From Octopus vulgaris (taxonomy: Eukaryota), in assembly GCA_951406725.2 (NCBI GenBank), contig OX597822.1:56482001-56546000 (forward strand): 64,000 bases of DNA, written 5' to 3'. The translations under genes were made by a program, and so were the position numbers. Shown here piece after piece: positions 720 to 62,410 of this stretch; position 1 is the stretch's first letter, and every line of letters begins with the position of its first letter. The notes beneath the pieces are model-generated. The model saw nothing but the letters and a program-made list of their open reading frames with translations, did not search any database and was not told the DNA's origin.

Positions 720-2670
720 CCAAAAATAATTCGAATGTAAATAAGCACAATTATTATACACCCACGAAGAATACACTGACAATGAACAAAAATAATAAGA
801 TGAATTATAATAATAGTAATATTAATAATAATAATGATAGCCGTAAGGAAATTATATGGCTAATTATCCCTTATGGGATAAATCGAAACTAACTTGAAGA
901 AATTCTGAACATAATAAAAACAGCCTTTAAAAAGAACAAAACATACACGAAAATATTCTCAAACAAAACTATCAGAGTGGGCTATTCGACAACAAAAAAC
1001 GTTAGTAATATTATATCCTTTATAAACAACGTCAAATTAAATAACTTCTATAATAACAATTTAACTAATATTAACAATAGCTACGGAAGAAAAATAACAA
1101 TAAAAAAACATAACTGTATTTTAAATAAATACACATGTCAAGATAAATCCAAATGTAGCTTTAATAATAATTGCAACCTAGATAATGTAATTTATAAATG
1201 TACTGTAACCTCTAATAATAAGAAGAAAGAATATATAGGATCCACAGCGAATGAAATTAAAAGAAGAATTTTCCAGCATTATCAATCCATTAAAAATCTC
1301 ATAATAAATTCGACAGGCCTAAGTAAATACATATAGGAGTTGATATCTGAAAAATAGAATACACCCTTAATTGGAATATCCTTAGTAGAGCGAAGTCATA
1401 TAGAATAGGTAATAAAATGTGCTTATTATGCACAAATGAAAATACTCCAATCGAGAGAGGTATTACTGAGCAGTTCAGAAGAGAGAGGAACAACATGCCG
1501 ACATAAGAATGTATGTAATTTCCTAAACAATTATGTGGAAGATAGTTACATGTAGTTATAATAGAATTATATAATATAAGGTTGTCCCAAAAGTTCGTAG
1601 AAAGTCTTGGAAAATAATGGTCTTTATTTTGAGGAATAATTTTTGTTGTTTTTGTTAGTACTTGGCGAATAAAAATTCAATTTTCGCAAGTGTTTACGAA
1701 CTTTTGGGACAACCTAATAGTATTAGATACGGATATACCGAGAACCAAGAATATATTTAAAGAATATTACATTAAAAGGAATAGACAGGCCACATTTAAT
1801 ATAACATAATTCTTTAAATCTTTAACACTAGAGAAAAAATCCAGTTATAGCTAAATTTCAGAGTATCTTGATATTATCTCGCCTTGAATTCAATCTCTCA
1901 AATATTATTAGTCTTAGAGAATTTTTCAGAGTAGTATATTTTATTTATGTTATTCCTATAATACTTAGCGACGACAAAGGGAGTAGCCATTTGCACAGGA
2001 ACTAGCAGGAGTAAACGTGTAGATAAGTATTCTTCCTTTGTTAATTTTGTTTACTAGATTCATTTACTAGACTTATTCACTAAATTTATAACGTATATGG
2101 AGGTTTTTACTTTTTAAATATTATTAACTTACGTTTGACATAAAAATGATAATCCATGCTTGTATAGTTAGGGGTAAATCTTACAATAATTATTAATACT
2201 CGTAATGTTCATATAGATAAGCGTTGGAATTTGATGTGTTTATAAAATAGTCGATGAGGGTTTCTTTGTTTAGCAGTTTTTCTTCTCTCTCTCTCTCTCT
2301 CTCTCTCTCTCTCTCTATATATATATATATATATATATATATATATATATATATATATATATATCGAAATAGTATTTTTAGGTGTTTAATTTTATAAATT
2401 TTTATTATTTAAAAATTTTTTTGATTTAAAAAATATTTTGATTTGGTAATTTTTTCAAAATATATTAGTAAGTTATATATATATTTATTATATTTTTATC
2501 CATATTCTTATTTTTCTATTGAATATATCTTAGAATATGTAGTTTTAAGCTTGATTCGTTAATAATAATAACAATAAGAAACTAGCCCCAGAACGCACTG
2601 GTGGATTTATGGATTAGGTATGGCCTGGTTTAACAAACCACCGGCGCAGAAACACGTGTAGTGTTGATTA
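720..2670 (+). mobile_element. Degraded Penelope-like element 3' part (GIY-YIG endonuclease)
   Basis: ORF 977-1336 CNLDNVIYKCTV...YIGSTANEIKRRIFQH...STGLSKYI, followed by out-of-frame WNILSRAKSY...CLLC; decayed hammerhead-like motif near 2585-2665. Mirrored in the right arm at about 57650-59335. Confidence 0.75.
1577..1717. mobile_element. Mariner-type MITE
   Basis: TIRs T(A/T)AGGTTGTCCCAAAAGTTCGTA, flanked by TA; the site is empty in the right arm (about 58970). Confidence 0.8.
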
Positions 2671-3513
2671 CACTTATCTACTTTCCCCACAGGTAGGGTA
2701 TATATATATTTCAAATATTTTAAAATATTTTAAAAAATTTATTTCATTGTACTTTAAAGTAGGCTTTAAAATGCTTATATCATTATAGTTATACTGGATA
2801 TAACTTTCTATGTGTATTCCGAAAATAAGATTGTCCTGAAAAAGGAGTTGTGGTTCTATTGGTAAAATCTCAAATTTATAATAATACATATGTATATATA
2901 TATATATATATATATATATATATATATATATATATATATATATATATGATATAATAAAAAATGGAGTTAACGCAGGTGTAATCAAATATTTTTACTTTCG
3001 ATACATGTTTCGAAAATTCCACTGATACTATTCAAAAGAATAAATGGTATAAACAATGCAATCTTCTCCCCAGGAAAGTGAAAAAAACGAAAATTTTTTA
3101 TTCATATTATTCGACGTAAACACGAAGTTTCTACCTTTATAAACAAGGAGTTACAACACCTTTACTTGTGAGATTTTTGCTGCCCTGGTAACTATTTATT
3201 TATTTTTTCCGTGTTAATTGTTAACAAGGTAAAAATACACTCATCTATTTATATATATATATATATATATATATATATATATATATATATATATATATAT
3301 ATATATATATATAAATGTATGTATATATATATATATATATATATATATATATATATATATATATATATATATATATATATATATATATGTATGTATGTAT
3401 GTATATATATATATGTGTGTGTGCATAGAAAGTGTATGTCTGTGTTGTGTGTACTAATGAATATGACAACGATCAGCAGAGAAAATGAGAGAAGATAATA
3501 TATGGAAACTTAC

Positions 3514-3697
3514 CTGGACAATGGGTCTGTCCATTTTGGGGAGGAGATCTGTCCAAAAACCGCATATATTATTCATGTAATTCTCTTTCGTCTCAGGCTC
3601 TGCTTTATCGTCAATCACAATATATTTCTGGTTTTCGGGTGTGAACTTGGGCCATGGATCATTGGAGCAATCAGAACAACCTCCATTGTTAGGATTA
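3514..3697 (-). CDS. Cholinesterase-like gene copy A, second coding exon (GNPN...WPKF...CGFW)
   Basis: Acceptor TTTTCCAG|T, donor CAG|GTAAGT. Continues the phase-2 frame as G-NPNNGGCSDCSNDPWPKFTPENQKYIVID...ICGFWTDLLPK, the typical cholinesterase C-terminal catalytic segment. 184 nt versus 185 nt in copy B. Confidence 0.88.
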
Positions 3698-59510: not shown

Positions 59511-59670
59511 ACTATAGACGAGTTAGATCAATACTAAAAACAGAGCTCAATGCTAAAAACAAGATAATAGGTATTAACGTCCCAGTTATAAGTTACAACT
59601 ACAATATCCTTAACTGGACGCTAAATGAACTAACCAAAATAGATAAGAAAACAAGAAAAATAATGACACA
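59511..59670 (+). mobile_element. R4/Dong-like LINE fragment after (AAT)n
   Basis: YYRRVRSILKTELNAKNKIIGIN..VISY..LNWTLNELTKIDKKTRKIMT; homologous to 32930-33090. Confidence 0.7.
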
Positions 59671-61719
59671 CACCGCAGTGCCAGTATTGTTGTGAAAATG
59701 AGATTTGAAAAGTCCTCTAAGAAAACCACCAATCACTGGAAAAATAACAAGCATAACAGAAATCAGACTACGAGCAAAGCAGAAAGCCATAAAATGAGGA
59801 AATAGATATCTCTGGATCAACTGATTTTAAATTTTGAGAGTTTATCTTCCTTAATTCTCATCAGCAGGAATCACTATTTACCTAGGGTTAAAAACTTTGC
59901 TCGATTTATTGTGTTCGCTTACCGTTGAAAAGCTAGAGCTGGATTAGAAAAAGCTGGTGTCAGTGTGTAAAATTACTGAATTAATAGATATTCGAAAATA
60001 TTTATCTAGATATTATTAATTATTATCATTAGTAAAATGAATAATAACAATAATAATATAGGTGGCAAACAAGCAAAAACTAATAAATGGCAAATCCATT
60101 TACACACACATAAATACACACACACACACACACTCACGCGCATACATATATCTAATATGATAAATGCGAAAACTAATTTCTGTGTGTCAGTGTGTCACAC
60201 TTTGACCCCCTCTCTTACTATTCATTGACACTCCTACTATTGCTCATGTTTGGGTGAGAGTAATAGTAGGCATAGAGATGGTGAGAGCGGTGGCAAAAAC
60301 TGACAGAAAGAGAGAGAAAGAAAGATGAGAGACAAAATTATAAGGAGACTTGATGTTTTTAATAAAAGTAGTAGAGTTGATGGTGGCTGTGGGAGTAATA
60401 ATAATAAGAGAGAGAGAGAAAGAGTGGCTATGTGAGAGAAACTGACCACTGAACTAACAGGATGAGTAACATACTGAAGGAATACACACATTTAGTCTTT
60501 TTGTGATGGTAATGGAGTGGGCTGTAGTTGTGATATTGGTAGAGGCGGCAGTGATGGTGGTGGTGGTGGTAGCCGAGGGAATGAGGGATGAAGTGAGAGT
60601 AAGCGATGTGAAAGACTGTTGATGATGAAGGGGAAGGCGGCGAAGTCAAAGGTATTGGCTGTGGTGGCATCAGAAATATGCATGGTGCATGTATGGCAGA
60701 TGTAGTGGTGATGGTGGTGGTGGTGGTAGTATAAGTTCTAAGTCGACAAATTGTATCAATGTTTTGATGAAAATTGTTCACTGTTTGAAAAATATTGTTG
60801 AAGTTTAATAAAATTTAATATATACTCAATGCAAGAAGTGTCATTTTTGCGTCCAAGGCCTAATGAAGCACCCCCACAGGATCTATCTTAAAAGAGAGAT
60901 CTTTTTAAGCCACGATATATATATATATATATATATATATATATATATATATATATATATATATATATATATATATGGTGATTGTCAACTCCTTATGCAG
61001 AATCTGACAACGTTTTCAAAAGACTCCCACATAGATAGCATATCTGATTTGGACCACCAAGAACATCAGTTAAGTTCTGATTTTTGTGGATCTTAGAATG
61101 TCTTTTGAAGCCTCCATTTAATTTGCAGACCTTATTGCATACATACATACATATATATGTATCTAAGCATATATATATATATATATATATATATATATAT
61201 ATATATATATATATATATATATATATATATATATATGAGTGTATGTATATATGTATGTATGTATGTATGTATGTATGTATGTATCTATCTATCTATCTAT
61301 CTATCTATCTATCTATCTATCTATCTATATATATATATATATATATATATATATATATATACACATACAAATGTGTGAATAAATACACTCACACACTACT
61401 ATCACATCATTTTACATTCCTCTTGCTTCTCCTCTCTTTTTACCACACTTTCCTTTTTCTAGATCCCCCACTCTTTGTTCCATACTTTCTCTTTCTTTAC
61501 CTATCTCATTATCCTTGTAGCCTCTGTACATCTACCGCTGTATTATTATATTTTACTTAGCTGCAATCAATACCAATGTTGTATATGTATTTAAGTATGT
61601 ATGTATGTATGTATGTATGTATGTATGTATGTATGTATGTATGTATATATATATATATATGTGTGTGTGTGTGTGTGTGTGTGTGTGTGTGTGTGTGTGT
61701 GTGTGTTACATACATATAA

Positions 61720-62410
61720 GGGGGATGACCACTAAGTGGACATCCATTATGCTAGAAGTCGGCCCCGTACGGTCTTACCACTTAGAAAGGAATGTTCTCA
61801 AGAAAATTTAGCAAACACCAGAACGTAAGCGAGCAAGACAAATGAAAAGATACAAAATATGCAGATTATTCACAAATCCAGTTTCGTTATTACCACTTAC
61901 GTAGACGCCCGCAACTCGTCAGTGTGATCGTCATAACAAAATATAATTTGAAGAACTATACACGATACGTCCGCATGAAATTGAACATGTATATAGTTCT
62001 ACCAATTAGATTTCGGGTTATATTTGAAAAGTCTTCGTTTTGGAGCGCCAAAATACCGGAAATATTTCTGCAGAAAATAATTCTCTGCAGTGAAATTTTG
62101 CGATTTGAGAACATAGTTATTTAAATTTAAATTTAAAATAATAAGCGTGAAAAATTGAATATTGATTTGATTAATATCAATTTAAAACCAGTGGTCTAGG
62201 ATATAGAAAAATCTGAAGATTCAGAAAATTATATTACATACATATAAGAGGGATGACCACTAAGTAGACATCCATTATACTTGAAGGCGATCCCCTATCG
62301 TCTGACCACTAAGAAAGGAATGGTCTCAAGAAAATTTAGCAAACGCCAGAACGTAAGCGAGCAAGACAAATGAAAAGATACAAATATACAGATTAATTAC
62401 AACCCGGTAT
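61720..62410 (-). repeat. Partial tandem repeat (about 530-bp unit) with a hammerhead-like motif at the unit junction
   Basis: About 61720-61875 is repeated at about 62248-62403. Minus-strand tcaca CUGACGA...GAAA...tgtga at 61870-61927. Confidence 0.6.

Follow-up and report, generated by a model that had tools for sequence, protein, structure and literature searches.

Long-armed hammerhead motifs in Penelope-like elements of Octopus vulgaris

Hammerhead-bearing repeats of the window

A 64-kb window of contig OX597822.1 of Octopus vulgaris, drawn from a 2.8-Gb genome and characterized by 34% GC and much (TA)n and (CA)n, contains 14 copies of hammerhead-like motifs, which belong to 11 families and correspond to about 11 insertion events. 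These motifs are almost certainly hammerhead sequences borne by Penelope-like elements (PLEs), and what appears to be new about them is a long stem II. An earlier listing of the window, termed here the original prediction, had claimed 12 hammerhead-like stretches, all of which were found where it had placed them; 11 of the 12 belong to multi-copy families whose core is of type I, and the remaining one (46767-46811, minus strand) joins them once its core is relocated. Its tally of about eleven motifs was incomplete, as two copies of one family, K, had been overlooked (4541, plus strand; 54929, minus strand). The hammerhead-bearing repeat families of the window are labelled A-K, and genome loci fetched for comparison carry L-numbers.

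Six of the families (A, B, D, E, G, and J), judged by motifs compared by eye, appear to be pseudo-long terminal repeats (pLTRs) of PLEs of the Hydra clade. Family B is represented by a near full-length, decayed element on the minus strand (9575-13215; tblastn and translation), in which an inverted tail (~13140-13212), a 5' leader, an open reading frame (ORF) from 12861 with KWK, DKT, reverse transcriptase (RT), and GIY-YIG, a 3' untranslated region (3'UTR), the hammerhead (9712-9831, core intact, stem II span 93), and a tail follow one another. Family A is a young pLTR stub in (TA)n (54262-54653, minus strand; 98-99% identity), and its hammerhead (54470-54555) is intact, with a span of 55, ACAUAUGU as stem III, and A at position 17 (A17). 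The G insertion, also in (TA)n, consists of an inverted tail piece and a pLTR stub (2955-3250, minus strand); its hammerhead (2994-3079) reads CUGGGGA, and the family majority reads CUGAGGA, with a span of 55, ACAUGUGU, and C17. In family E, a long 3'UTR with a local direct duplication of ~840 bp, spanning 20101-21931, precedes the pLTR (20101-22572, plus strand), and the hammerhead at 22358-22445 has a majority span of 57, ACGAUCGU, A17, and U.U at the base of stem II; a second E fragment, lacking the hammerhead, lies at 37475-38745 (minus strand). The two D motifs, at 27371-27466 (minus strand, core intact) and 27757-27855 (plus strand, C3 and position 17 mutated), belong to a single head-to-head inverted insertion (27263-27962, both strands, span 72). 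Family J occurs twice. J1 (plus strand) retains decayed remnants of the RT thumb and GIY-YIG of a Hydra-type PLE, with the CxCX5C linker, CxxC, and CxH visible (842-1452; tblastn and translation), and a hammerhead at 2585-2665 in a pLTR of ~2316-2890, the core of which is mutated; the family majority reads CUGAGGA, with span 55, ACACGUGU, and A17. J2, its duplicate (57386-59332, minus strand), carries a hammerhead at 57655-57735 and a GIY-YIG remnant at 59099-59332. Directly downstream of the J hammerhead (e.g., 57600-57650, minus strand), a polypyrimidine-AG is followed 11 nt later by GTAAG, which resembles acceptor and donor splice signals beside the short 3' end.

The remaining families are diverse. 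Family C is a 5'-truncated PLE, apparently of Neptune/Nematis type (22751-24030, plus strand), in which a remnant of the ORF (22753-23423) is followed by a short, intact hammerhead (23842-23886; span 18, AGUACU, A17). Family H, placed by sequence in the same group, is a pLTR stub (43420-43671, plus strand) with a minimal hammerhead at 43546-43580 (span 12, ACGU); this stretch had been called core-mutated, which holds for the GAAA of the window copy, the family motif being a short minimal hammerhead with G at position 17 in 16 of 21 rows and U in five. Family I is a stub (46700-46930, minus strand) with an inverted piece upstream, and here the hammerhead call held for the family and failed for the core, the proposed CUGCGAGG lying inside stem II. 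The true core, CUGAAGA, lies ~50 nt upstream of that call (remnant from 46865, span 77, ACGAUCGU), and the window copy is 5'-truncated at the core. Family F comprises 1.3 direct units of an ORF-less 527-bp retrozyme-like repeat (61706-62402, minus strand), with a hammerhead at 61870-61927 (family span ~40, ACCGGU/ACUGGU, U17). Family K is known from its two window copies: K1 (4530-4590, plus strand) has a hammerhead-like motif with a span of ~17 and a mutated GAAA, and K2 (54875-54940, minus strand) is its duplicate.

The J motifs had been noted as a mirrored pair, and they do lie, as do K1 and K2, on opposite arms of one old inverted segmental duplication (~1-9.6 kb versus 46.8-60.6 kb; 1-9573 versus 46819-60579, 74-94% identity by block), one breakpoint of which is at the family I stub. 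The duplication also carries a carboxylesterase exon, presumably acetylcholinesterase-like, which is an open frame of 498 aa at 7498-8994 (minus strand), matching COesterase of Pfam with E 1e-135, and is frameshifted in its second copy at 47397-48892 (plus strand).

Abundance against chance

A strict type I descriptor, in which the stem II span was allowed to reach 130 nt, detected two loci in the window with stem I of at least 4 bp and three with at least 3 bp, compared with a mean of 0.02 in block dinucleotide shuffles of the window (n = 60). With two core mismatches allowed, the window count of 3 is close to the 1.16 found in 25 shuffles; degraded motifs are therefore not separable from chance singly and were confirmed through their families instead. 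Across 40 arbitrary genome stretches (400 kb), the strict descriptor found 17 loci, 7 of them from one array (shuffled mean 0.08), compared with 2 in the 64-kb window. For long-armed motifs, the pattern CTGANGA N45-70 GAAAC NNNN GTH was used, with the reversed pattern as control. Given that it matches twice in the window and four times in the 40 arbitrary 10-kb stretches, and that the genome mean predicts ~0.9 per 64 kb, the hammerhead density of the window is ordinary for its genome. Genome-wide, the pattern has 38,223 matches versus 1,241 for the control, a 31-fold excess of ~37,000. Among the first 30 matches, stem III is a perfect 8-nt palindrome in 17, where ~8% would be expected from base composition.

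Genome searches with 10 query stretches, which cover all 12 listed motifs (two pairs being queried once each), returned 1509 candidates for A, 788 for B, 2006 for C, 499 for D, 2505 for E, 2014 for F, 2867 for G, 2550 for H, 542 for I, and 202 for J; these are first-look counts, of which only 40 were scored per search. When 16-30 copies per family were aligned, window copies included, both core halves were intact in 27/29 rows for A, 25/28 for B, 26/26 for C, 20/27 for D, 24/30 for E, 20/21 for F, 14/16 for G, 16/26 for J, and 5/16 for I, many copies of which are 5'-truncated. The majority sequences of A, B, C, D, E, F, G, and J restore intact cores, and CUGANGA and GAAA with a UH cleavage triplet are present in the majorities of A-G, I, and J, several window copies being mutated. 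Family H has the classical minimal motif with G17 in most rows; a core-intact pattern count of 19/20 for this family was discarded, as it was inflated by a second GAAA, and the alignment of 21 rows was used instead. In general, three helices surround the core, stem I is open and covaries, as does stem II, and in J, D, and B stem I is merely 2-4 bp. In Rfam, hammerheads are absent among the best 150 of 293 window matches, and none reaches the gathering score in five loci; because the canonical array L247 is among the loci that escape, this test is judged insensitive here.

Host elements: Penelope-like elements and retrozyme-like units

The original prediction had proposed a diverse ribozyme-bearing Penelope/retrozyme mobilome of unrelated families with a shared design. 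The design is borne out (type I, palindromic stem III, long stem II, and (TA)n), and so is the attribution, with remnants of RT and/or GIY-YIG linked, on the hammerhead strand, to 8 of the 10 searched families and F forming a circularly permuted unit of 527 bp that lacks an ORF. What does not hold is the lack of relationship: A, B, D, E, G, and J share one PLE clade, within which A and G are sister subfamilies. As for the mobilome, PLE and retrozyme-like elements are both present, and the copies are for the most part pLTR stubs, dispersed and with inverted partners, not tandem retrozymes.

RT followed by GIY-YIG in a single ORF is found in A, B, C, D, and J and in part in E, G, and H. Coding remnants occupy the hammerhead strand in B, D, G, and J, and E is linked to Hydra-type protein remnants in 5/30 loci; a search for ORFs beside the F and I motifs found nothing linked. 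One A locus, L021, reads as (TA)n, inverted pLTR, a 737-aa RT and GIY-YIG frame, hammerhead pLTR, and (TA)n, and L228 of family D has the same layout. Family C loci L238/L239 hold ORFs of 584-676 aa, and L246 of family H is arranged as pLTR-ORF-pLTR. The overlap of ORF and hammerhead in L021 is an artefact of a 3'UTR deletion, as L008 and L011 show ~600 nt between the endonuclease (EN) and the motif. In the window B ORF, IKWKAYY and QSDKTRNLY may be compared with the RWK/DKT motifs N-terminal to RT in the Hydra clade. The CxCX5C linker is CNCRNPNTC in D and CTCQDKSKC in J and partly preserved in B, with CxxC and CxH flanking EN; A has CxxC and CxH and lacks the CxCX5C motif. RT and EN of the A ORF (L021:1553-3763, minus strand; L245) are joined by ~150 aa of Asn-rich linker, in a family that is young and continues to insert in (TA)n. 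An initial label of Nematis-like for A, B, D, G, and J was abandoned once their motifs had been set against the Hydra definition, which they fit, as they do Hydra-1_Obim when compared by eye. Family C has ADKGG and CNDSRCGTC, and H has CSRSHCHTC, which correspond to the DKG motif (C) and the CX2-5CxxC linker, in its CX4CxxC form, before GIY-YIG. In Pfam searches, C exceeds the GIY-YIG cut-off, and the A-family ORF, two B fragments, and P0001 are without a match; a protein search returned two relatives only.

The ends of the copies conform to this anatomy. All families have staggered 5' ends, indicating 5' truncation. Inverted partners are present in 58/212 loci and direct partners in 5/212 (within 3.2 kb), H having none inverted in 19 loci. 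In most families, two clusters of 3' ends, at microsatellites, lie downstream of the hammerhead, for instance, 64-69 and 215-224 nt after the anchor in A, 51-61 and 208-212 in G, 43-52 and 129-156 in E, and 135-139 and 169 in C. The gap between the two, which defines the tail, is ~32 nt in C and ~90-200 nt in A, B, D, E, F, G, and J, with J and I noisy.

In many F copies, the tail runs on into the body of the same element, yielding the circularly permuted unit, the longest sense frame of which is 60 aa. F is thus best described, by its sequence features, as a putative retrozyme-like unit that lacks an ORF and combines a type I hammerhead with ends of PLE type; the window holds 1.3 units, and no tandem array of the kind described for retrozymes was found among the fetched F loci. 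L247:2745-4763 is a canonical retrozyme-like array of 5.6 x 359 bp at 98% identity, with two inverted units in addition. At the same locus, 7448-7545 and 8626-8773 are degenerate interstitial (TTAGGG)n-like tracts in opposite orientations. Another array, L347:3014-4893 (C1:5011014-5012893), consists of 3.5 units of 534 bp that are 100% identical and lie in (TA)n, with an intact hammerhead, a 50-nt stem II, and no PLE-like coding match; it appears to be a retrozyme with a long arm.

The long stem II

Stem II spans 55 nt in A, G, and J, 57 in E, 72 in D, 77 in I, 93 in B, and ~40 in F, compared with 18 in C and 12 in H. The fetched loci together yield 158 long-arm motifs in 40 clusters, with stem II lengths of 40-99 nt. 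The cluster representatives were chosen for palindrome and low energy, so that their figures lean favourable: stem II is better than z -2 in 22 of them, A17 occurs in 27, and the 10.1-11.1 pair is G-C in 14, G-U in 7, and U-U in 6. Family majorities have stem II z-scores of -4.9 (A), -8.9 (B), -3.6 (D), -3.2 (E), -3.7 (G), -3.9 (J), and -2.6 (F). Among 12 A/G subfamily sequences, two-sided changes occur at 12/28 pairs, 7 of them within the 12 basal pairs of stem II; the covariation score is matched in 0/500 shuffles, and pairing falls from 85% to 35-47% when the sequences are slid. The arm may not be clade-wide, since two motifs with short arms (22 and 25 nt) in the genome also lie downstream of Hydra-type EN remnants.

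The pairing of PLEs with hammerheads is itself published, octopus included, and the apparent novelty lies in the long stem II of animal PLE hammerheads. A literature search found no account of such a class in animals and one plant precedent; Lunse et al. 2016 and Arkhipova et al. 2017, which might describe it, fell outside its coverage. It is tentatively proposed that the Hydra-clade PLEs of the octopus and the retrozymes derived from them use an undescribed long-arm class (stem II of 40-99 nt, an 8-nt palindromic stem III, a relaxed 10.1-11.1 pair, and tails of 90-200 nt), the arm being a module through which the RT-EN protein might switch cleavage on.

Proposed processing and its alternatives

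With good confidence, these are type I hammerheads in the pLTRs of PLEs and of one ORF-less derivative, which likely cut tandem transcripts as dimers, with most single genomic copies likely inert. Taken separately, dimeric processing of tandem transcripts, possibly protein-assisted, with solitary and inverted stubs mostly inert, is favoured with some reserve. In folding predictions, the monomer hammerhead lies 1.7 kcal/mol above the minimum for A and 4.9 kcal/mol above it for C, and cofolding gives the double hammerhead as the minimum for both (-53.8 versus 2 x -22.7 for A; -17.0 versus 2 x -5.4 for C), which fits the published dimer model for PLE hammerheads; cleavage is accordingly predicted in dimers only. 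Two copies would pair via the stem III palindrome (8 bp for A) to form a double hammerhead, the predicted lowest-energy fold, and cleavage, by analogy with published PLEs, would free a unit-length, perhaps circular, RNA. The enzyme of the element would then, as in those systems, nick AT-rich DNA and begin reverse transcription at either of two internal sites, giving rise to the tail. The weakest step in this scheme concerns the long stem II, which would be a pre-folded hairpin that fixes the geometry of the core and is probably a handle for the protein of the element, replacing the loop 1-loop 2 contact of fast hammerheads; that the arm is a functional protein handle is on the whole doubtful. 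Indirect evidence for activity comes from ORF-less tandem arrays with intact motifs (L247 and L347). Four contig sets guessed to be RNA cover the A pLTR; as contigs do not show ends, strand, or level, they were not used as evidence.

Several observations weigh against this scheme. Points of 5' truncation show no concentration at the predicted cleavage site, only 1/163 falling within 3 nt in a sample biased to hammerhead-bearing copies, and direct tandems, which would provide each ribozyme with a partner in cis, are rare. G17, carried by most H copies, normally does not support cleavage under the NUH rule. No linked ORF is found for family I, the stem II of which (z -0.6), like that of 18/40 clusters, is not clearly stabler than shuffles. 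The A/G covariation counts ignore kinship, and related sequences may beat shuffles without structure; in addition, the distal part of stem II covaries weakly, with RNAalifold retaining the basal 10 pairs only. AT-rich hairpins can also grow neutrally, which bears on the role of the arm as a protein handle. Finally, insertion of PAc in vitro proceeds without the need for hammerhead cleavage, with no RNA ends at the site, as reported by Frangieh et al. 2024 (PMC11167929).

It is conceivable, though less probable than dimeric processing, that PLEs keep the hammerhead fold as a structural signal for protein binding or template folding, cleavage being marginal or absent in vivo. The lack of a 5'-end pile-up, the independence of PAc insertion from cleavage, the poor in vitro cutting published for minimal PLE hammerheads, and the G17 of H would all be expected then. 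Against it, the core, the UH triplet, and the palindrome are kept over 40 clusters with unrelated stems, even if the pattern itself demands the core, and ORF-less tandem units with intact motifs (F, L247, and L347) fit the published circular-RNA route. A different alternative, that the long stem II makes monomers active by touching stem I or the flanks in a tertiary or pseudoknot contact, is rather unlikely: while the A monomer fold is just 1.7 kcal/mol from the minimum, an 8-nt stem III can make 2 bp and a tetraloop, and direct tandems are rare, the complementarity of the stem II loop to its own flanks is no better than to the flanks of other families (4.05 versus 4.06 nt, 40 clusters), and the palindrome is conserved though a monomer does not need it.

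Alternatively, an AT-rich hairpin loop may have grown neutrally into the long arm in a single PLE lineage of the octopus and been tolerated, since the core needs the basal helix only. The arm lengths of 40-99 nt with no sequence common to the families, the lower conservation of the distal helix, and the presence of short-armed Hydra-type motifs (22-25 nt) in the same genome and in O. bimaculoides make such an origin possible, against which stand the extended pairing, the two-sided changes over the 12 basal pairs, and the clustering of many families at 53-63 nt. Chance similarity in AT-rich repetitive DNA, in favour of which the near-shuffled two-mismatch count and the lack of an Rfam hammerhead might be cited, has a negligible probability as the source of the motifs and is already refuted by the genome and 400-kb counts (a 31-fold excess; 17 versus 0.08), in line with the restoration of cores in family majorities.

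Comparison with known systems

Hammerheads in PLE pLTRs have been published (PMC4209133), as have those of Hydra-clade PLEs, including Hydra-1_Obim of octopus (Craig et al. 2021, PMC8557442). With the Hydra clade (PMC8557442), the octopus families share the C-terminal GIY-YIG, DKT, CxCX5C/CxxC/CxH, (TA)n targets, a type I hammerhead, an AC-palindrome-GU stem III, frequent A17, and U.U or G.U at the base of stem II, of which U.U has been published (PMC3088659, PMC7229834). They differ in that stem II spans 55-93 nt in A, B, D, E, G, and J, compared with 12-26 nt in 25 Hydra rows of Craig File S2, in that their tails are ~90-200 nt long, compared with the 30-40 bp described for PLEs, and in the Asn-rich A linker without a Cys motif. 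Likewise, the pLTR hammerheads published for PLEs resemble those described here in pLTR location, solitary and inverted copies, palindromic stem III, and the dimer model, H fitting the consensus and C resembling a listed Hydra magnipapillata motif. In contrast, helix II is short there (< ~25 nt by eye in the Fig. S3 alignment), and G10.1-C11.1, highly conserved there, is found in 14/40 long-arm clusters here.

Retrozymes have been reported to be PLE derivatives (Li et al. 2026, 10.64898/2026.07.22.740005). F is like the non-LTR retrozymes (Cervera and De la Pena 2020, PMC7229834; 10.64898/2026.07.22.740005) in being ORF-less and circularly permuted with a type I hammerhead, and L247 (359 bp) and L347 (534 bp) are like them in forming tandem arrays; unlike them, F is mainly dispersed, in pieces of 1-1.3 units that include inversions, and its unit exceeds the ~300-390 bp described, and L347 has a stem II of 50 nt. 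PAc (Poseidon) of Anolis (PMC11167929) also has two 3' ends defining a tail, AT-rich targets, and a pLTR hammerhead, but its ORF starts inside the hammerhead, whereas the B ORF starts well downstream of the predicted cleavage site, and protein-assisted cleavage has been shown there, whereas the motifs here are known from sequence alone. The closest match in arm length is the precedent in PLE-X1_sMoe of spike moss (Craig File S2), with a stem II span of 54 nt; the element comes from a plant, is EN-minus, targets rDNA, and has been flagged as non-canonical, and it stands for one family as opposed to tens of thousands of copies here.

Significance

As the association of PLEs with hammerheads and its occurrence in octopus are already in print, the surprise is limited. 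Standard annotation misses the long-arm class, implying that the ribozymes of cephalopods have probably been undercounted by a wide margin: for the giant squid, 235 loci of Rfam hammerhead_1 are reported, compared with ~37,000 long-arm motifs in this genome. Active Penelope families are listed in a repeat annotation of Octopus vulgaris, the main text of which does not use the word ribozyme (PMC13282606). The role of the hammerhead in PLEs is still open, given its weakness in vitro and its dispensability in one reconstituted system, and this genome supplies young intact variants (A, 98-99% identity; L347, 100%) together with dozens of natural variants for a direct test. If the tentative reading of the long arm as a protein switch is true, the ~37,000 copies with intact cores would rank with the largest ribozyme populations that lie hidden in animal genomes and would offer a direct route to the purpose of PLE hammerheads.

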